A DNA stretch of 6,928 nucleotides from a virus. Taxonomy: Duplodnaviria > Heunggongvirae > Uroviricota > Caudoviricetes. A program made the position numbers and the translations under genes. Below the pieces are notes generated by a model. That model searched no databases and was not told where the DNA came from. It saw only the letters and a program-made list of their open reading frames with translations. This document shows, in pieces, positions 1 through 6,928 of this stretch (positions are counted from its first letter, which is position 1; every line of letters starts with the position of its first letter). The stretch lies in the IMG/VR virus record IMGVR_UViG_2675903352_000017, positions 1 through 6,928 of that record, one strand, 5' to 3'.

Positions 1-138
1 AAAGGCCCCATAAGGCGCTCGCGCTAATGACACCCGTGGAATATATTTTAAGAGAGAACAAAAATTGCAATATGTGGTGGACCCATACATCTCCTTGCCT
101 TTCGGCACGTAAGAGGCTAACCTACATGTGTCTAGCAT
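1..138 (-). CDS. Partial hypothetical protein, 5' end only; the frame runs off the window start
   Basis: ATG at 138..136 on the - strand, preceded by GAGG (150..147) with an 8-nt spacer and an in-frame upstream stop. The frame stays open for 46 codons to position 1 (MLDTCRLASYVPKGKEMYGSTTYCNFCSLLKYIPRVSLARAPYGAF...). No family recognised; too short for the ORF track. Confidence 0.2.
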   Translation of the reverse strand, partial: MLDTCRLASYVPKGKEMYGSTTYCNFCSLLKYIPRVSLARAPYGAF

Positions 139-202
139 GAAATTGGCCTCAGATTAATGTTAAGCGTCTTGCAGGACGCGTAATGTTAACTGGGGCTTTT
201 CT

Positions 203-238
203 CTATCTGCCGTTGGTGTTCATGCCCGAGGCAGATAG
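203..238. repeat. 9-bp perfect inverted repeat CTATCTGCC / GGCAGATAG separated by 18 bp
   Basis: Read directly: 203..211 CTATCTGCC and 230..238 GGCAGATAG are exact reverse complements. No U/T run follows on either strand, so it is not an intrinsic terminator; it could be a protein-binding site or an RNA stem. Confidence 0.35.
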
Positions 239-292
239 CCTCAAGCACCCACAGCCATTCTACTTAACTACCGTTACCTCGCCAATATGAAA

Positions 293-397
293 TCAGTCAG
301 AAAGGCGATCCATAAGAACAACAGCAAGGCAATAAATTGCCATTACAGCAGCAATAGCCAGCGCACATTTCAGAACCAGCACAATGACCTCCCACAT
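293..397 (-). CDS. Small hydrophobic peptide, about 29-42 aa with one predicted transmembrane helix; hypothetical
   Basis: - strand frame MWEVIVLVLKCALAIAAVMAIYCLAVVLMDRLSD, stop TGA at 295..293. Three in-frame starts are possible: TTG 421..419 (AGGAGG about 10 nt upstream), ATG 397..395 (no SD), GTG 382..380 (GGGAGG 393..388, 5-nt spacer). It overlaps the listed + strand ORF 287..481 antisense, so which strand codes is unresolved. Confidence 0.25.
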   Translation of the reverse strand: MWEVIVLVLKCALAIAAVMAIYCLAVVLMDRLSD

Positions 398-493
398 TTG
401 ACGTACACGTGCATGATTCAATATGTGGCAACCTCCTCCTTGCTTCAATGCAAAATCAAGTATTGTTGTATAACTATTTAACCAACTCCCTAT

Positions 494-537
494 CCCCGCA
501 TCTCAGGCGCCCAACTTATGTGTGCGGGGCGTTTTTT
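494..537 (+). terminator. Putative rho-independent terminator on the + strand
   Basis: GC-rich stem options CCCCGCA (494..500) / TGCGGGG (523..529), or CGCCC (508..512) / GGGCG (527..531), followed directly by T6 at 532..537. On the - strand the hairpin is followed by AUAGGGAG, not a U tract, so it is directional for + strand transcripts. Confidence 0.4.
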
Positions 538-543
538 AATACC

Positions 544-627
544 TTACCCCCAGCGGCAAATCAAATACACCACCAGCGCCACCGCCAGTGCAATACCTAC
601 TGTTGTGAATGCCTCAGGCCAGCTCAT
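544..627 (-). CDS. 27-aa predicted single-pass membrane peptide; hypothetical, last gene of a three-gene operon
   Basis: ATG at 627..625, translation MSWPEAFTTVGIALAVALVVYLICRWG, stop TAA 546..544. A strong SD AGGAGG sits inside the last two Arg codons of the upstream 115-aa gene, 7 nt before the ATG. Hydrophobic core with a basic C-terminus. Below the ORF-track size cutoff. Confidence 0.45.
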   Translation of the reverse strand: MSWPEAFTTVGIALAVALVVYLICRWG

Positions 628-631
628 TGAT

Positions 632-979
632 TCACCTCCTTCGTGGTTCTGGTAGCGGCATCCAGTCGGTTACATTGCGGCTCTGTGTTTCAAAAAATTC
701 ATTACCATTGCGGACAATATCGAAAAACTCACCGTCTCGATATTGCGCATGAAGAACGAATGCGCCATCACATAAAATAATTACGTGCTGACCATCACCT
801 AGCATTCGCTCACTACAGCTTATCCAACCGCCCGAAGTTACCGGAGAGTTGCCAGTCTTACGCATGGCAATCTCCACGATTTCAACCATATCTCCTGGTG
901 GAATTTTACAGTGCTGACCCAAATGCCTCTGCTGCCTGGCATACTCAAGGATGTGCTCCAGTTTGATTCGATTAATCAT
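632..979 (-). CDS. Hypothetical protein, 115 aa, second gene of the coupled operon
   Basis: Complete ORF from the track. Its ATG (979..977) overlaps the TGA stop of the upstream 135-aa gene as ATGA; GGAG lies 7 nt upstream. No family recognised from the sequence (MINRIKLEHILEYARQQRHLGQ...). Confidence 0.7.
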   Translation of the reverse strand: MINRIKLEHILEYARQQRHLGQHCKIPPGDMVEIVEIAMRKTGNSPVTSGGWISCSERMLGDGQHVIILCDGAFVLHAQYRDGEFFDIVRNGNEFFETQSRNVTDWMPLPEPRRR

Positions 980-1383
980 GATTTATCTCCCTTAAGCATG
1001 GCTGCACGACAGGCCTCTTTGAGCACCCAGTCAACCGCGTCTTTCCATGCTCCGGTTTCGACTGGCGGATTTTCACGCTTAACCTGTTCATAGAAACGCA
1101 CTGCTTTAATCAATCCTTCTGGTGTCAGTGACACAGGTGTAGCGGTGAATAGAGGTTTAGGTGTTATCTCTGCACGTTTTGCGTATGCATCAACTGTGTC
1201 AGGATTAAACAGGATTATGTTTTCGCCGTATTCCCACGCTATCGGCTCTGCTTCCAGCGATGCCAGAGCAATTTTGAATAACTCACCCTCTACTCGTGCC
1301 ACCCCTGAATTGGGGTGGCATTTCGCAATCGCTATTTTTAATTTAGCTTCTTCGATTAATTGCTCTTTTGTTAATTCAGTCAT
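976..1383 (-). CDS. Hypothetical protein, 135 aa, first gene of the coupled operon
   Basis: Complete ORF from the track (MTELTKEQLIEEAKLKIAIAKCHPNSG...). It follows a 158-bp AT-rich intergenic region and is same-strand coupled to the 115-aa gene. No family recognised. Confidence 0.7.
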   Translation of the reverse strand: MTELTKEQLIEEAKLKIAIAKCHPNSGVARVEGELFKIALASLEAEPIAWEYGENIILFNPDTVDAYAKRAEITPKPLFTATPVSLTPEGLIKAVRFYEQVKRENPPVETGAWKDAVDWVLKEACRAAMLKGDKS

Positions 1384-1392
1384 TTTTCATTA

Positions 1393-1408
1393 CCGCCCTT
1401 TCGGGCGG
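1393..1408 (-). other. GC-rich hairpin with a GAAA (GNRA) tetraloop in the 5' leader of the 135-aa gene
   Basis: - strand RNA reads AGGAGG-CCGCCC-GAAA-GGGCGG-UAAUGAAAAAUGACU. A 6-bp GC stem (1393..1398 / 1403..1408) lies between an AGGAGG motif (1420..1415) and the start codon at 1383. A 4-codon mini-ORF (ATG AAA AAT GAC TGA, from 1390) overlaps the real start. No U tract follows, so it is not a classic terminator. Confidence 0.3.
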
Positions 1409-1541
1409 CCTCCTGATGTTTTGAGGGTGCAGGAATCCCTCCTGTTAAGGATTAAATTTTATTTACAGTGCTGAGATTAATTATTCAGATTTGAATTATG
1501 TTTTCTCTTTCACTTCACGCAGTCCTGATTGTTAATTTGGC

Positions 1542-1958
1542 TCACAGTACCACCTCCTGCAAACTTCCCTTCCAGAAAGCCAGCACGCGCTGCATAGTTT
1601 CGCTCTGACGGCACTCTCGGCAAATTATGTTCTGTCTCCTGTTGTAACGGCGTATCTCGCTATCTGGCAATGAATAAACCAGGTCGGGGTCGTTCTTCTT
1701 TTTCACTGCCGCTCTCGACATTTTTTTGCAGGCTTTTATCCAGTCCTTACGAGCCTGTTCTGAAGGAAATATTCCATGGCCTGAACCATATAGCGTGCCA
1801 CTAACTACCAGCTCTTTCGCCAGAACTTCTATCAGGTGTCTCGTTGCTCCGGTTTCATCCTCCAGTTGCTTACGTGTTTTCCTCCCATCTCTGCGCACCA
1901 GTTCCACAATACGCGCCTTCAGTTGCTCCCGATATTCAGGTGTAAAAACGTTTCTCAT
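1542..1958 (-). CDS. Hypothetical protein, 138 aa from the ATG at 1958; the longest ORF begins at 2015 (157 aa)
   Basis: Track ORF 1542..2015. The internal ATG at 1958..1956 is preceded by GGTGAGG with a 5-nt spacer and avoids a 50-nt overlap with the upstream gene, so it is the preferred start. Product MRNVFTPEYREQLKARIVELVRRDGRKTRKQLEDETG...; basic, no family recognised. Confidence 0.6.
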   Translation of the reverse strand: MRNVFTPEYREQLKARIVELVRRDGRKTRKQLEDETGATRHLIEVLAKELVVSGTLYGSGHGIFPSEQARKDWIKACKKMSRAAVKKKNDPDLVYSLPDSEIRRYNRRQNIICRECRQSETMQRVLAFWKGSLQEVVL

Positions 1959-1965
1959 AAGTGCC

Positions 1966-2727
1966 TCACCTTTCCGACACAACGCGACTGGAGGAATCGA
2001 CAATCTGTCGGACAATATCCCGGTGTTTATTCAGCTCCCGCAGCGCGGCGCAGACGCGCTCCCACTTCTGGACATGATTTTTCGCCCGGCGCAGTTCGCG
2101 GTTTGCCAAATGCAGCGATGGTAAAATCAGGTCATCCGCCCGCGTTTCGGTGAACGATGGCAGCGACTGCACAATGTCCGCCACAGTTTCTGTTTTAATT
2201 TCTTCCTGTGTTACAGTTTCCTGTGCTGGTAACGCAACACCTGCTGGCTGAGGAAAGGCTTTACCATCTGTTTCCGTTACCAATGCGGCTTTCGGCTCTG
2301 CTGGTAAATTATCGTCCGGCATGCAGTAACGAAATTTACCGTTCTGATTTACGCGAATCAGGCGACCTTTGCTGATTGCCTGAGCCAACGTTGAAGCCAC
2401 TTTGCGTGATGTGATACCGAACAGCGTAGCCAGCTCATCAGCCGTTTGTGGTCCGCGTTGTTCAATCGTCGCCGTTAAATCGCACTCTGAGATTTTCGCT
2501 ACTGTTGCCGTGGTAGTTTCTTCATGAAATTCAGCCCGGGATGCTTGTTCCTGCTGAGCATTGCTACCAGCCACACGCCAGGTGTACGCGGTTTTATCAA
2601 CGAAACCAGATTTTTTCAGTTCCCACAGCTCATTCAGTACCTCTTCACGACTGATATCAAGTCGCGCAGCAAGTTCTATGGATGTGGCCTTTCCCATCGC
2701 TTTCAGTGCGTCAAAAACAGTCTCCAT
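1966..2727 (-). CDS. Hypothetical DNA-binding protein, 253 aa from the ATG at 2727; the longest ORF begins at 2778 (270 aa)
   Basis: Track ORF 1966..2778. The internal ATG 2727..2725 is preceded by GGAGG (2740..2736) with an 8-nt spacer and removes the 29-nt overlap with the DnaC-like gene. The N-terminus ([43 protein letters not shown]) and a second segment ([32 protein letters not shown]) look like winged-helix/HTH motifs; that reading is inference. Confidence 0.65.
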
Positions 2728-2749
2728 TAAAATTTCCTCCCGGTAAAAA

Positions 2750-3496
2750 TCACTTCGTGATTCCTGGCTGGACGACATTCGGGCGCCAGCTTTCCCAGTT
2801 AAAAGTCACCCAGCGCCCGCCGTTCATGGTCATGCGATCCATAATCCTCTCGCCGAGCAACGTTTTCATGGCCTCATAGTTCAGGTTTGTCAGCATCCCC
2901 ATACTGCGCATCGATGCTGTCCGGCGATCAACAATCTGATGCAGCACCACCTGCTCGTTTTTCGTCTCACGCTGAATGCCAATTTCATCAAGAACCAGCA
3001 GATCCACTTCGCACAGTTCCCGCAAAAATTTTTCGCCTGACTGCCCGTCGTCATAGCTGGCGTGCAGGGCACTCATAACATCAGCCACAGTAACCACTAT
3101 CACTGTCTGGCCGTCTTTCAGCAGGCGATTCCCGATAGCCGCCGCCAGATGGTTTTTTCCGGTACCAGGTTTTCCGCTGAACGCGAAATTTGTGCATCCG
3201 GTCATCAGTTCATCAGCGATGGATTTCGCCTGACTTAACGCGTATCGCTGGCCGTCGTTCTGTACATGGTAATTCGCAAACGAGCATTTACGGTGCAACG
3301 GCTGGATGCCTGAGCGATTCAGAATTTTTTCCACCCGCAACTGGCGATTCAGGCGGTTGATCTCCTCGCTACGCTTCTGGCCTTCAGCAAGTTGCCACTC
3401 GCGCCACTCCGCTACCGTTCTGAATGGGGCGGTTACATGTGGCGGGGTCAGTCTGCGGATACGTTCCAGAACGCCGCCTGTCGCAATATTTTTCAT
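2750..3496 (-). CDS. ydaV: DnaC-family replicative helicase loader (AAA+ ATPase)
   Basis: 248 aa. Walker [18 protein letters not shown], Walker [10 protein letters not shown], and C-terminal [21 protein letters not shown]...[10 protein letters not shown] align along the full length with E. coli DnaC as I recall it. It follows the initiator gene after a 6-nt gap. The symbol is given from family plus synteny with Rac (ydaU-ydaV). Confidence 0.92.
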
Positions 3497-3502
3497 GGTT
3501 CG

Positions 3503-4465
3503 TTACCCCCTGAACCCCGGAGGAATTTCGGTGTCCGGTTCAGAAATATGATTCACACAACGCTGTACAGGTGAACGCCCCAGGCGGATGACCAGTTCGT
3601 CCCATTTTTCGCGGAGCTTTGACGGGCTCATGATGTTTTTTACCCAGAATGGATCCCGCTGTACCCGCCCAAACATTTCGCAAATTTGTCTGTGAGTTCT
3701 GCCATCCAGCATCCGCATTGTGCGCACGTCATTGGCCCACGCGGTCCAGTTTGGTTCTTTCGGTCGCGTGATCTCGCCATCATCGCTGGCCGCCTGCTCG
3801 TAAAGACTCACGATTCGTCCCCAGATCCACTGTGCGCACGCCAAATCTTCCTGACTTCCCCACTGGCGTTTTTTCGCACTGAACACAACCGCATCAGGGT
3901 GTCGGGTTAAAAAATCCTGTTCAGCCGTCTGCGGGTCCGGTTGCGAAGCGTCCGGACAAGAAGATCTTTTATCTGATGGATCAGATTTTAATACTGACGG
4001 ATCGGGGTCAATCATCGCCCCCCTAACCGACCGTTTTTTATCAACGGTTGATCCATCAAAATTTGACGGGTCAACCGTTGAGGGGTCAATATTTGACGGG
4101 TCAACCGTTAACGGGTCATTTTTTGCCGGGCTAATTTTTCTTTTCGGTTTATATGCCTCTCGCGCCGCCGCTGCTGCAGCTTCGAGTTTTTCCACATTAA
4201 GCCGGTAGATATTGCTTACGTTACGTCCGCCAACCTTACGCTCTTCCTTTGTCAGCCAGCCGCTTTTTTCCAGTTCCGCTATCGCCGCTTTAACCGTTGA
4301 TTCACTCTTTGCCCCAATCTGACGACGAATGGTCTCTACTGCAGGCCATGACACACCTTCATCATTGCTGTAGTCTGCAAGACGAGCCATCACTGCCACC
4401 CTGGATAAGATCATGCCGGTGAAGGCACACCCTTCCCAGACAAGACCATGAAGCTTGCTGCTCAT
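3503..4465 (-). CDS. Phage replication initiator (O-like origin-binding protein; YdaU-like by position)
   Basis: 320 aa. N-terminal winged-helix pattern typical of phage/plasmid replication initiators (ILSRVAVMARLADYSNDEGVSWPAVETIRRQIGAKSESTVKAAIAELEKSGWL). Central repetitive linker PLTVDPSNIDPSTVDPSNFDGSTVD is encoded by the iteron DNA. Sits immediately upstream of the DnaC-like loader. Confidence 0.8.
   Translation of the reverse strand: MSSKLHGLVWEGCAFTGMILSRVAVMARLADYSNDEGVSWPAVETIRRQIGAKSESTVKAAIAELEKSGWLTKEERKVGGRNVSNIYRLNVEKLEAAAAAAREAYKPKRKISPAKNDPLTVDPSNIDPSTVDPSNFDGSTVDKKRSVRGAMIDPDPSVLKSDPSDKRSSCPDASQPDPQTAEQDFLTRHPDAVVFSAKKRQWGSQEDLACAQWIWGRIVSLYEQAASDDGEITRPKEPNWTAWANDVRTMRMLDGRTHRQICEMFGRVQRDPFWVKNIMSPSKLREKWDELVIRLGRSPVQRCVNHISEPDTEIPPGFRG
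3995..4155. repeat. Putative origin of replication: iteron cluster and adjacent AT-rich tract inside the initiator gene
   Basis: Perfect 19-bp direct repeat ATTTGACGGGTCAACCGTT at 4061..4079 and 4091..4109. Related partial copies: TGACGGATCGGGGTCA 3995..4010, TCAACGGTTGA 4041..4051 (inverted relative to 4071..4081), GGGGTCAAT 4082..4090, ACGGGTCA 4111..4118. An AT-rich stretch follows at 4118..4155, and several GATC sites sit at 3979..4052. Same logic as lambda ori lying inside gene O. Confidence 0.6.
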
Positions 4466-4488
4466 AAAAAACCCCGAACACCGTGCTT

Positions 4489-4914
4489 TTAGTGCATCAC
4501 CACGGCATTTCCTGCCGGGCCACCGCGATTAATCTGGTTGAAACCAGCAATTGCCACCGCAATAAAATCATCTGCATCCCTCACCAGCCGCTCCCGCGTC
4601 TCCAGCAGCTCCCGAAAATAGGCTGAACTGTGACTGCGCATTCGGGCCACCAGCAGAGGCGGCATTGCCTTTTCGATCGCAGGTAACAACGCCTGAATTT
4701 TTTTAACCGCATCAGGGGTGTCTTTCTCCACCCAGCGGAAAATTTTCTGAGTATTGCGAGCCAGGGCTTCAGGATGGCTGTCGTCATATAATTCCGGGAA
4801 CGTCATACCCAGCTCAAAATAAGCTCGGGTTATTTCAGCCGCCGGAACTTTTTCGCCATCAGGACGCGCCCAGGCATTCATCGCCATGCGGATGTGTTCA
4901 TGCTTGATTTTCAT
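4489..4914 (-). CDS. ydaT: YdaT-like protein (proposed CII-like regulator / toxic product of the Rac early-right operon)
   Basis: 141 aa, immediately downstream of the Cro-like gene and upstream of the initiator, matching the size and position of Rac ydaT (about 140 aa). Assigned by synteny and size; I cannot verify the sequence match from memory. Confidence 0.6.
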   Translation of the reverse strand: MKIKHEHIRMAMNAWARPDGEKVPAAEITRAYFELGMTFPELYDDSHPEALARNTQKIFRWVEKDTPDAVKKIQALLPAIEKAMPPLLVARMRSHSSAYFRELLETRERLVRDADDFIAVAIAGFNQINRGGPAGNAVVMH

Positions 4915-4936
4915 GAATCATTTGCCTCTTGATGTT

Positions 4937-5233
4937 TCAGGTATGATCAAATGAGGATTTGTTACTGTCATTTAGTTGCTTCACTGACATATTCTGCGAA
5001 TAACATGCCGAACGTCGTAAATATGACCAGTCAATATCAGGACGAAGTTCTTCGCACAGAACGTCACCTCTTGTTGCACGTTCAATTGCTGGACATCTCT
5101 CTGCAGGCAATTGACGTACCCCTTTGATCCATTGATTTACGCTTGGAGGTGATACACCTAAAAGCCTAGCCATTGCTGATTGCCCACCGACAACAGCACA
5201 AGCTCGCTTGAATGAATAGTTCTCTTTTTTCAT
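4937..5233 (-). CDS. ydaS: Cro/YdaS-family HTH DNA-binding protein, first gene of the early-right operon
   Basis: 98 aa; MKKENYSFKRACAVVGGQSAMARLLGVSPPSVNQWIKGVRQLP... matches my recollection of E. coli K-12 Rac YdaS nearly residue for residue. HTH motif present. GGAG sits 8 nt before the ATG. Divergent from the repressor gene across the operator region. Confidence 0.8.
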   Translation of the reverse strand: MKKENYSFKRACAVVGGQSAMARLLGVSPPSVNQWIKGVRQLPAERCPAIERATRGDVLCEELRPDIDWSYLRRSACYSQNMSVKQLNDSNKSSFDHT

Positions 5234-5259
5234 CGAATGAACTCCAAAAACACACAGAG

Positions 5260-5289
5260 ATATTAGGCGACGCCTAATGCTAATGTCAA
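5260..5289 (-). promoter_or_regulatory. pR-like sigma70 promoter for the ydaS-ydaT-replication operon
   Basis: - strand -35 TTGACA (5289..5284), 18-bp spacer, -10 TAATAT (5265..5260). The -10 and spacer overlap operator O1. The predicted transcript start is about 20 nt upstream of the ydaS SD. Confidence 0.5.
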
Positions 5290-5329
5290 TAGGCTATGCC
5301 TAATGCAGTAAGAATAGGGATTGCCTAAT
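5262..5329. promoter_or_regulatory. OR-like tripartite operator: three 17-bp palindromic sites, consensus ATTAGGC-N3-GCCTAAT
   Basis: O1 5262..5278 ATTAGGCgacGCCTAAT (perfect inverted repeat); O2 5288..5304 AATAGGCtatGCCTAAT; O3 5313..5329 AATAGGGattGCCTAAT. Centres are 26 and 25 bp apart. The sites lie between the divergent repressor and Cro-like genes. Confidence 0.6.
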
Positions 5330-5334
5330 ACAAT
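5329..5334 (+). promoter_or_regulatory. Possible -10 element of a pRM-like repressor promoter (weak or absent -35)
   Basis: TACAAT at 5329..5334 on the + strand, about 7 nt before the racR SD AGGAG (5341..5345), with no good -35 hexamer 17 bp upstream. Resembles an activator-dependent pRM-type promoter next to O3. Speculative. Confidence 0.25.
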
Positions 5335-5356
5335 GAGCATAGGAGAATATTAAGCA

Positions 5357-5833
5357 ATGCTTAGTGGTAAAGACTTAGGCCGAGCAATAGAGCAGGCCAT
5401 TAACAAAAAAATCGCATCGGGATCCGTCAAATCAAAGGCGGAGGTCGCTCGCCACTTCAAAGTCCAACCACCATCAATCTATGACTGGATTAAGAAAGGC
5501 TCCATAAGTAAAGATAAACTTCCAGAATTATGGCGTTTCTTTTCTGATGTTGTTGGTCCAGAGCATTGGGGGCTTAACGAATACCCCATACCAACCCCCA
5601 CCAACTCAGATACAAAAAGTGAACTTTTAGACATAAACAACCTTTATCAGGCAGCCTCTGATGAAATAAGAGCGATTGTAGCTTTCCTGTTATCAGGAAA
5701 TGCTACAGAACCAGACTGGGTTGACCACGATGTTCGCGCCTACATAGCAGCGATGGAAATGAAAGTTGGTAAGTATCTGAAAGTTCTAGAATCTGAACGG
5801 AAAAGCCAGAACATCACAAAAACTGGAACTTAA
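5357..5833 (+). CDS. racR: Prophage repressor, RacR-type (cI functional analogue, HTH)
   Basis: 158 aa; MLSGKDLGRAIEQAINKKIASGSVKSKAEVARHFKVQPPSIYDWIKKG... matches my recollection of E. coli K-12 RacR in sequence and length. HTH near the N-terminus. Flanked on both sides by arrays of the same operator palindrome. Confidence 0.85.
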   Translation: MLSGKDLGRAIEQAINKKIASGSVKSKAEVARHFKVQPPSIYDWIKKGSISKDKLPELWRFFSDVVGPEHWGLNEYPIPTPTNSDTKSELLDINNLYQAASDEIRAIVAFLLSGNATEPDWVDHDVRAYIAAMEMKVGKYLKVLESERKSQNITKTGT

Positions 5834-5846
5834 ACTTATATGGTCT

Positions 5847-5876
5847 GACGGAAAACTCCTGGATTCCGTTATTTAA
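5847..5876 (+). terminator. Weak candidate terminator or stem-loop downstream of racR
   Basis: GACGGAA (5847..5853) pairs with TTCCGT (5864..5869) around a 10-nt loop, followed by TATTTAAT. Stem is short and the U tract imperfect. Confidence 0.2.
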
Positions 5877-5928
5877 TCCCTCCCATCACTTTTTTCATTC
5901 GCATCACCTATTGGGTTACGCCCAGAAC

Positions 5929-5972
5929 ATTAGGCAAAGCCTATTGACAATCAATTAGGCATTACCTATAGT
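5929..5972 (+). promoter_or_regulatory. pL-like sigma70 promoter with two overlapping operator sites (OL-like)
   Basis: -35 TTGACA 5944..5949, exact 17-bp spacer, -10 TATAGT 5967..5972. Operators O4 5929..5945 (ATTAGGCaaaGCCTATT) and O5 5954..5970 (ATTAGGCattACCTATA) are 25 bp centre-to-centre and overlap the -35 and -10. Confidence 0.6.
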
Positions 5973-6071
5973 TCCAGCATGCCACCCACCCCGCCCCACA
6001 GCACGCAGGGCAATACTTCGAGTTACCAGGCAGTGGTCAGGGGTTAAGTAGCCAGCCCGAGGCGTAAGAAC

Positions 6072-6302
6072 ATGACGGCAGGGTTCAACTTTAACTATGC
6101 AGCAGGTTTTTGTTCCGCTACCCCGGCGTTAAGGGGAAATGAGGTCAGCATGGATACTATCGATCTTGGCAACAACGAATCTCTGGTGTACGGCGTGTTT
6201 CCCAACCAGGACGGCACGTTCACCGCGATGACGTATACCAAAAGTAAAACGTTTAAAACCGAAGCTGGCGCGCATCGCTGGTTAGCAAGAAACTCTGACT
6301 GA
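6072..6302 (+). CDS. Small hypothetical protein, first ORF of the early-left operon (76 aa, or 50 aa from the internal ATG at 6150)
   Basis: Track ORF. ATG 6072 has GAGG 9-10 nt upstream; the internal ATG at 6150 has GAGG 6141..6144 with a 5-nt spacer (MDTIDLGNNESLVYGVFPNQDGTFTAMTYTKSKTFKTEAGAHRWLARNSD). Rac carries small ORFs (ydaG/ydaF) in this position, but I cannot confirm the sequence identity. Confidence 0.5.
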   Translation: MTAGFNFNYAAGFCSATPALRGNEVSMDTIDLGNNESLVYGVFPNQDGTFTAMTYTKSKTFKTEAGAHRWLARNSD

Positions 6303-6313
6303 TGAGGTTGACG

Positions 6314-6928
6314 ATGGAATTTAAAGATTTACCTACTTCAATCCAGGAGATTGCAGCACACACACTTCGTCATCGTCTGAACGAACTTGCATTGGAATCG
6401 GTAACGAAAAAAGACACTGATAATATGGCTCGTAATGTGCGCGATGCGTTTACCGGATTGTATTTCTGTGCGTCTGTAAATAAACACGACTCAGAGAGTG
6501 TGGCAAATAAAATTGCAGAAACGACAGCGCAAAACATCAATACGAAACCAACGGAAGAAGAAATTGATCAGTTTGCTCATGATGCTGGTTTAAAAAACAA
6601 GAAAGAAAAATCGCCATATGCGGGGAACATGTTTGTTTATGACAATCTCATCAGAATTCGTGGCGAAATTCCGGCGGAATACCTGGCAAGAGTCCATCAG
6701 GCATTGCTTAAAAATCTGGAAACAGAATTATTTGATGGCAACACTAACGGTTTCTTCATGGTATCAGGCCTTGAGAAAGACTGGGATGCAGAAAAACGCT
6801 GGAATGTTGCTACATGGTTATTCAGTAACAGAGCCGCTGCTCTGGAAGCTTCGGCATGTATTTGCGGCCTGTTCTTAACAGACCACAAATATAATCTGGA
6901 TGTGTACAGTTATATTTACGCTGGTTAA
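6314..6928 (+). CDS. Hypothetical protein, 204 aa from the ATG at 6314 (208 aa from the ATG at 6302, which overlaps the upstream stop as TGATG)
   Basis: Complete ORF ending with TAA at the window edge. GAGG 6304..6307 lies 6 nt before the ATG at 6314. Product MEFKDLPTSIQEIAAHTLRHRLNELALESV... is hydrophilic, with no transmembrane segment and no motif I recognise. It sits in the early-left operon driven by the pL-like promoter. Confidence 0.7.
   Translation: MEFKDLPTSIQEIAAHTLRHRLNELALESVTKKDTDNMARNVRDAFTGLYFCASVNKHDSESVANKIAETTAQNINTKPTEEEIDQFAHDAGLKNKKEKSPYAGNMFVYDNLIRIRGEIPAEYLARVHQALLKNLETELFDGNTNGFFMVSGLEKDWDAEKRWNVATWLFSNRAAALEASACICGLFLTDHKYNLDVYSYIYAG

Follow-up and report, generated by a model that had tools for sequence, protein, structure and literature searches.

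Downstream of the repressor gene racR in a Rac-type lambdoid prophage, we found a pair of RacR-type operators lying on a near-consensus promoter. This element is very probably the OL/PL of the RacR immunity group, at which RacR would occlude a strong sigma-70 promoter driving the early-left operon. The DNA analysed here (6,928 nt, positions 1 to 6,928 of the IMG/VR record IMGVR_UViG_2675903352_000017; hereafter the window) is such a prophage's immunity and replication region; the closest complete E. coli genome shows 92.7% DNA identity to the window, and none is identical to it. The anatomy of the element, its departure from chance, its mirror-image likeness to the promoter PydaS, its conservation and its position at a mosaic boundary were established in this work, while the RacR consensus, the OR footprints, the RacR octamer and the derepression data were taken from the literature. 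The features of the region are listed in Table 1.

Table 1 Features of the window around racR and the OL/PL element.
Feature	Coordinates	Strand	Remarks
DnaC-like gene		-	
Replication-organiser gene	3503-4465	-	
ydaT	4489-4914	-	
ydaS, Cro-like regulator	4937-5233	-	PF15943 (P22_Cro)
PydaS, PR analogue	5260-5289	-	TTGACA, 18-nt spacer, TAATAT; mapped experimentally in K-12 (PMC11879457, PMC9638921)
OR operator O1, TTAGGCGACGCCTAA	5263-5277	.	perfect match; over PydaS -10 and spacer; published RacR footprints (PMC9638921)
OR operator O2, ATAGGCTATGCCTAA	5289-5303	.	abuts PydaS -35
Additional OR operator, ATAGGGATTGCCTAA	5314-5328	.	
Operator, TTAAGCAATGCTTAG	5350-5364	.	overlaps racR start codon; described in PMC9638921
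racR, repressor gene, 158 aa	5357-5833	+	between OR and OL; 99% amino acid identity to E. coli RacR; RefSeq names
OL2, promoter-distal operator, TTAGGCAAAGCCTAT	5930-5944	.	final base is first T of -35 hexamer
PL -35 hexamer, TTGACA	5944-5949	+	TTGAC invariant in 7 loci
OL1, promoter-proximal operator, TTAGGCATTACCTAT	5955-5969	.	spans spacer and first 3 nt of -10
PL -10 hexamer, TATAGT	5967-5972	+	17-nt spacer; TAATAT or TACTAT in homologous loci
Predicted PL start, A	5979	+	7 nt past -10, placed by spacing; K-12 equivalent ~1,419,619, minus strand
PL transcript leader, ~170 nt, predicted	5979-6149	+	C-rich start
First early-left gene, DUF1391 (YdaF/YdfA family), 50 aa	6150-6302	+	RefSeq: 153 nt in H1
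Second early-left gene, 204 aa (phrog_2151, 'Ybl81')	6314-6928	+	starts 11 nt past DUF1391 stop

The RacR operator is known from footprints as a 15-bp inverted repeat, (T/A)TAGGC-n3-GCCTA(T/A) (PMC9638921, PMC5700373). Against the published consensus WTAGGCnnnGCCTAW, OL2 shows no mismatch and OL1 a single one, which marks both, by sequence, as operators of the RacR type; against TTAGGCnnnGCCTAA the mismatches number one and two, respectively. The two sites are spaced by 25 bp from start to start and also, just as the original prediction had read them, from centre to centre, and its coordinates for the element (5929-5972) were right to within one base. The + strand promoter that it placed over these operators, TTGACA and TATAGT separated by 17 nt, was confirmed at 5944-5972: its hexamers agree with the consensus at 11 of 12 positions, and it is the top promoter-like site within 4400-6928. 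Chance expectation was assessed with 2000 dinucleotide shuffles of the window. Five operator sites with at most one mismatch are present in the window (at 5263, 5289, 5314, 5930, and 5955), against a mean of 0.03 in the shuffled sequences, and a pair of operators 20-30 bp apart appeared in 0 of the 2000 shuffles. A promoter of at least 11/12 arose somewhere in the shuffled sequence in 11% of cases, so the promoter match by itself is not significant; the evidential weight lies in the fixed register of the hexamers with the operators and in their conservation, rather than in the promoter score.

Across racR, PydaS shows an arrangement of which the OL/PL element is the mirror image. The first T of its TTGACA is the final base of one operator, and another operator, 26 bp further on, provides the first three nucleotides of the -10; PL copies this arrangement, with the same overlaps between operators, -35 and -10 and a spacing of 25 bp. 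Moreover, the composite of operator and -35 recurs as a 22-nt inverted repeat (5284-5305 versus 5928-5949) that is 95% complementary. Work on K-12 has mapped PydaS with its operators and footprinted them with RacR (PMC9638921, PMC11879457), and because OL/PL mirrors this footprinted promoter, RacR is expected to contact the DNA at OL with the same geometry. The published OR sites O1-O3/O4 (PMC9638921, PMC5700373) likewise share with OL the 15-bp consensus, a spacing of 25-26 bp and the overlap with a near-consensus promoter; they differ in that they have been footprinted and lie upstream of racR, whereas the OL pair lies downstream of racR and is unmentioned in those two papers. Operators on both sides of the repressor gene, as originally proposed, are thus found as adjacent pairs flanking racR (OR at 5263 and 5289, OL at 5930 and 5955), which is the layout of a lambda-type loop.

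The element is conserved far beyond the window. The Rac prophage of K-12 carries a single change in OL/PL, located in the non-contacted central spacer of OL2; over 148 nt there are 11 differences, mostly within the 95 nt upstream of OL/PL. Loci encoding RacR homologues (57-75% identity) in Mixta, Morganella, Proteus, an Achromobacter MAG and Pigmentiphaga all possess an operator pair 25 bp apart, 3' of the repressor gene, in which TTGAC comes directly after the first operator and the second extends into TAATAT or TACTAT. When seven loci were compared without gaps, the conserved columns proved to be confined to the half-sites, the -35 and T-A-...-T within the -10, the flanks being unalignable, and OL2 was kept in all seven. 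In the Klebsiella locus, no operator pair was found within 2.5 kb; ydaS is also absent there, and the locus looks decayed. The DNA-binding domain of the RacR type is almost invariant among the homologues. In the betaproteobacterial loci of Achromobacter (L011 2501-3598) and Pigmentiphaga (L012 2501-3406) this domain (~75% identity across 77 aa) is fused with a peptidase domain of the S24 (LexA/CI) type, in place of which the enterobacterial RacR has an unrelated C-terminal domain, and the same operators are present at OR and OL. The operator pair accompanies the RacR DNA-binding domain into other genera, as expected of an immunity module, and the S24 domain swap should alter how the switch is induced. 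In Pigmentiphaga, two or three additional genes stand between the repressor gene and the operator pair, much like rexAB between cI and OL in lambda.

Viral contigs gave the same picture. A scan for the operator joined to TTGACA returned at least 190 copies in at least 119 contigs. Among the matches listed, a second operator followed 24-26 bp downstream in 186 of 190 copies, and all 76 PL-type copies carried TATAGT. In at least 71 contigs, two divergent copies were found 643-647 bp apart, corresponding to a pair of PR and PL. Across complete E. coli genomes, the intergenic segment that holds OL/PL was present in 582 of 5426, and in none of these was a feature annotated on it. Within 12 kb of the K-12 Rac prophage (intR-ydaW), OR and OL are the sole clusters of the operator motif, and from ydaG to intR nearly all genes lie on the PL strand, with the exceptions of sieB and the ralA RNA.

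The end of this conserved arrangement coincides with a mosaic junction. The alignment of the window to the phages Tritos and Evi, which have other repressors, starts only at ~5982; upstream of that point, both phages carry their own inverted repeats and promoter-like hexamers at the equivalent place. Because the homology to Tritos and Evi begins at ~5982 with their own operators upstream, the operators belong to the immunity cassette. The junction falls right after the -10, with conservation setting in where the transcript is predicted to start, as expected of PL.

Published data on K-12 agree with a RacR-controlled promoter at this place. When RacR was lowered, ydaF, ydaG, ydaE and racC rose ~40-fold and kilR more than 70-fold (PMC6765115), and xisR and intR rose ~100-fold, though they are 'far away' from racR (PMC11014345). 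Taken together, RacR depletion in K-12 derepresses ydaG, ydaF, kilR, racC, recET, xisR and intR (PMC6765115, PMC11014345, bioRxiv 10.64898/2026.09.06.749655), and zygotic induction of the Rac recombination genes has been known since 1973, according to the passage on it in PMC5917428. Part of this response of the left genes to RacR loss could come about indirectly: YdaS/YdaT or excision of the prophage might contribute, as might transcripts running on from the racR promoters, a read-through that Rho ordinarily keeps in check (PMC4150792). RacR binding work covers the racR-ydaS intergenic region only (PMC5700373, PMC9638921, PMC11879457), and a search of the accessible literature found no description of operators or a promoter downstream of racR, no RacR ChIP-exo or SELEX data, and no footprint or transcript-start mapping of OL/PL. 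Overall, the claim that OL-type operators sit on an outward early-left promoter 3' of racR is supported by the PydaS mirror, the phylogenetic footprint spanning genera and classes, the mosaic junction and the published derepression in K-12.

The genes and the leader downstream of PL are arranged as an operon. The end of racR (5833), PL (5944-5972) and the two early-left genes (6150-6302 and 6314-6928) are all co-directional, in a layout shared with K-12 and H1, which is where OL/PL is expected to lie. The first 32 nt of the leader contain 17 C and 7 G, and this C-rich start appears rut-like in sequence. Lambdoid phages whose repressors differ, among them Tritos, Evi and many more, share this leader at more than 90% identity; its conservation exceeds that of the protein genes after it, and its C-rich tract occurs in two sequence variants. 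As a structured RNA element, the leader found insufficient support: its single-sequence fold was no more stable than that of shuffled sequences (z=+0.86), and RNAalifold on 32 leader variants gave a covariation term of -1.36, with double changes in two pairs only. One pair, ACCCC/GGGGT versus ATCCC/GGGAT, is possibly compensatory. A scan of the whole window against Rfam gave no match near OL/PL or in the leader; its sole match was sok at 84-250.

Downstream of PL, neither an N-like antiterminator gene nor a nut site was found, the first genes being those for the DUF1391 protein and the phrog_2151 protein. Because the N gene and nutL are absent, OL/PL works like PL but does not head a left operon of the lambda N type. 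The ATG at 6150 has a GAGG ribosome-binding site in front of it. A 76-aa ORF from 6072 was rejected, since it probably arises only from an upstream ATG that happens to be in frame: in K-12 a stop codon interrupts 6072-6149, and RefSeq annotates the 50-aa gene only. No promoter-like or terminator-like site was seen between PL and the gene at 6314-6928. Because the genes are tightly packed in one direction with no such site intervening, the simplest reading of the sequence is that this gene would be co-transcribed from PL and hence silent in the lysogen.

The 204-aa product of this gene had no Pfam or PADLOC match, and its PHROG match is a family of unknown function. All of its 155 homologues are called 'hypothetical' or 'Ybl81' and come from Escherichia and Salmonella; the family is variable (65-98% identity), and tblastn against phage records gave matches confined to the N-terminal 86 aa. 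The AlphaFold2 model reached a pLDDT of 68 and a pTM of 0.44, and a Foldseek search of this model against the PDB returned nothing below E=1e-3. The label 'cargo', given to this gene (as 6302..6928) in the original prediction, is doubtful, since it has the look of an early-left accessory gene and not of a self-expressed moron. Two further observations concern this protein: it ends in ...YIYAG, where most homologues (208-212 aa) continue ...YIYAEHYPLWINW, and its N-terminal ~75 aa are common to several other PHROG families with different C-termini.

From these data, we infer RacR occupancy at OL, a transcript start near 5979, cooperativity, and a loop of ~0.65 kb between OL and OR. In the lysogen, RacR dimers would fill OL2, which abuts the -35, and OL1, which covers the spacer and half of the -10, and would thereby keep RNA polymerase off the promoter. 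Binding at the two sites is probably cooperative because their 25-bp spacing resembles the 24 bp of lambda. When RacR falls, PL would fire together with PydaS; starting at about A5979 and pointing away from racR, it would produce the 170-nt leader and then transcribe the DUF1391 gene and the gene for the 204-aa protein. In relatives, the early-left operon continues into kil or dicB, a recET-type exonuclease, xis and int. Later, YdaS, the Cro analogue, would probably bind the same OL sites; that it is a second binder of OL is made probable by analogy with the YdaS of CP-933P, which acts on PL933P (PMC8630535).

The paired sites on both sides of racR, together with an octameric RacR, make looping between OL and OR across ~0.65 kb plausible, and we hold it as a tentative proposal whose chances fall somewhat short of even. 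In its specific form, a pre-formed RacR octamer, assembled through a C-terminal oligomerisation domain that has no relation to the one in lambda CI, might bridge OL1-OL2 and OR O1-O2 and loop out racR, with the operator that overlaps the ATG acting as an OR3-like site; we lean slightly against this version too. The octamer has been observed by size-exclusion chromatography and was assigned by the authors to four adjacent OR sites (PMC11014345). If the octamer-bridge reading were true, this published model would need revision, OL would be the missing link that explains how xis and int, 7 kb away, respond to RacR, and the Rac switch would be a convergent re-invention of the six-operator logic of lambda.

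Could the OL sites be auxiliary operators only, with hexamers that form no working promoter? They might anchor an octamer that loops to OR for tighter PydaS repression or racR autoregulation, or they might act as a roadblock to read-through coming from the racR promoters. The octameric state of RacR in size-exclusion chromatography (PMC11014345) suits this idea, as do the appearance of an 11/12 promoter by chance in 11% of the shuffles and a search that found no intrinsic terminator between racR and the OL sites, where just a weak, non-significant hairpin (5846-5871) is present. However, the register of TTGAC and the -10 is unchanged throughout the seven loci, even though those letters of the -10 that the operator does not cover could vary freely, and the PL-type copies have TATAGT in every one of the 76 cases among the matches listed. 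Furthermore, phages of other immunity likewise place a promoter at the junction, and the downstream genes are co-directional and, according to the literature, derepressed when RacR falls. The roles of anchor and promoter are also compatible with each other, and we consider it improbable that the sites are auxiliary operators alone.

Similarly improbable, by a slightly wider measure, is a PL that is real but controlled mainly by a factor other than RacR (e.g., YdaS, H-NS, or Rho targeting the C-rich leader), the operator motifs being relics that a duplication of the PR region left behind. PydaS shows hardly any activity in vivo even in a host deleted for rac, a hint of additional silencing (PMC9638921), the start of the leader is C-rich and G-poor, and Rho silences the Rac kil gene (PMC4150792). 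Yet relics would not keep both half-sites over a repressor divergence of 25-43% while the flanks randomise; the half-sites co-vary with nothing but the invariant recognition region of RacR, and extra layers of control would add to that of RacR, not replace it. As for mere chance resemblance of the motif copies and hexamers, the modest significance of the promoter score taken alone is all that speaks for it, and it is already refuted by the complete lack of operator pairs in the 2000 shuffles and by the conservation in other genera and in at least 119 viral contigs; we give it almost no credence. An OL/PL element repressed by RacR thus stays by far the most probable reading.

The element resembles several known systems. 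Like OL/PL of lambda, it lies 3' of the repressor gene, faces outward and carries operators of the OR class over the -35 and -10; adjacent sites are ~24-25 bp apart (24 bp in lambda), the element marks the left edge of the immunity-specific segment, and the repressor is reported to octamerise. The differences are that Rac OL has two clear operators (and at most a degenerate third at 5911-5925), whereas lambda has three; that OL and OR are ~0.65 kb apart with no rexAB-type genes between them, compared with ~2.3 kb in lambda; that the C-terminal domain of RacR is unrelated to CI and without an S24 autoprotease; and that, in place of an N gene and nutL, neither of which was found at Rac PL, there is a 170-nt leader common to several immunity types.

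PL933P of the related cryptic prophage CP-933P (OL1-OL3), which had been recognised in a like manner, belongs to a layout of the same prophage family: a gene for the repressor, ydaS-ydaT in divergent orientation, and a further promoter similar to PR in its -35 and -10 and bearing operators of the repressor type (PMC8630535). GFP fusions showed that PL933P is repressed by PaaR2 and YdaS, and PaaR2 octamerises (PMC8630535, Jurenas et al. 2021). In contrast to Rac, CP-933P has a repressor of another family and three proposed operators that are 18-bp GTTTAGTAA-type repeats, and its paaA2-parE2 toxin-antitoxin pair sits between the repressor gene and PL; the Rac PL is known from sequence. In the Qin prophage, dicA is followed by an outward promoter (TTGACC-17-TAATCT) with DicA-type operator repeats; ydfA, the gene that comes first, is a homologue of the DUF1391 gene, and Qin and Rac have the final ~40 nt of the leader in common; the repressor and operators differ, and the C-rich part of the leader is absent in Qin. 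The two Qin repeats, TGTTAGCTATAGCATAC and TGTTAGTCATGGCTAAT, flank the promoter upstream of ydfA (K-12, L019 2370-2440), a promoter that was likewise read from the letters alone.

These results indicate that OL/PL is a real, conserved and canonical lambdoid 'left' switch of Rac-type prophages that has apparently never been annotated, although roughly one in ten complete E. coli genomes, that of K-12 included, contains Rac. A PL under RacR control supplies a mechanism for the response of the distant kilR, recET, xisR and intR, which recent work, regarding RacR as a repressor of ydaS/ydaT confined to the racR-ydaS intergenic region, has reported without one, while OL offers the RacR octamer a concrete second DNA partner and OL/PL defines the left edge of the RacR immunity cassette. 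In practical terms, engineering or deletion of racR in K-12 unmasks a near-consensus promoter aimed at kilR. The logic is that of the textbook lambdoid phage and not new biology.

Some minor observations were made in and around the window. A degenerate operator-like sequence, TTGGGTTACGCCCAG, occurs at 5911-5925 and may, judged by its letters, be a vestigial OL3, recalling the 20-bp OL2-OL3 spacing of lambda; with four mismatches and a distance of 19 bp upstream of OL2, it was rejected as a confident third operator. At the same position, a locus of Escherichia ruysiae has TTAGGTTACGCTTAA, with two mismatches. On the OR side, Escherichia Rac contains an extra operator unit of ~26 bp, which results in four sites (5263, 5289, 5314, and 5350), whereas the loci of other genera (L007, L008, L010-L012) have three, namely O1, O2 and the site overlapping the ATG; from O2 to the latter, the distance amounts to 61 bp in Escherichia, against 35 bp in those loci. 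The left end of the window gave an Rfam match to the sok antitoxin RNA (RF01794; 84-250, - strand, 110 bits, E=4e-25), which indicates a putative hok/sok-type toxin-antitoxin locus there. The replication-organiser gene contains, at 4041-4130, five iteron-like direct repeats that overlap one another and recur every 15 bp (TCAACCGTTGAGGGG / TCAATATTTGACGGG); by analogy with lambda, whose ori sits within gene O, they are probably the prophage origin.
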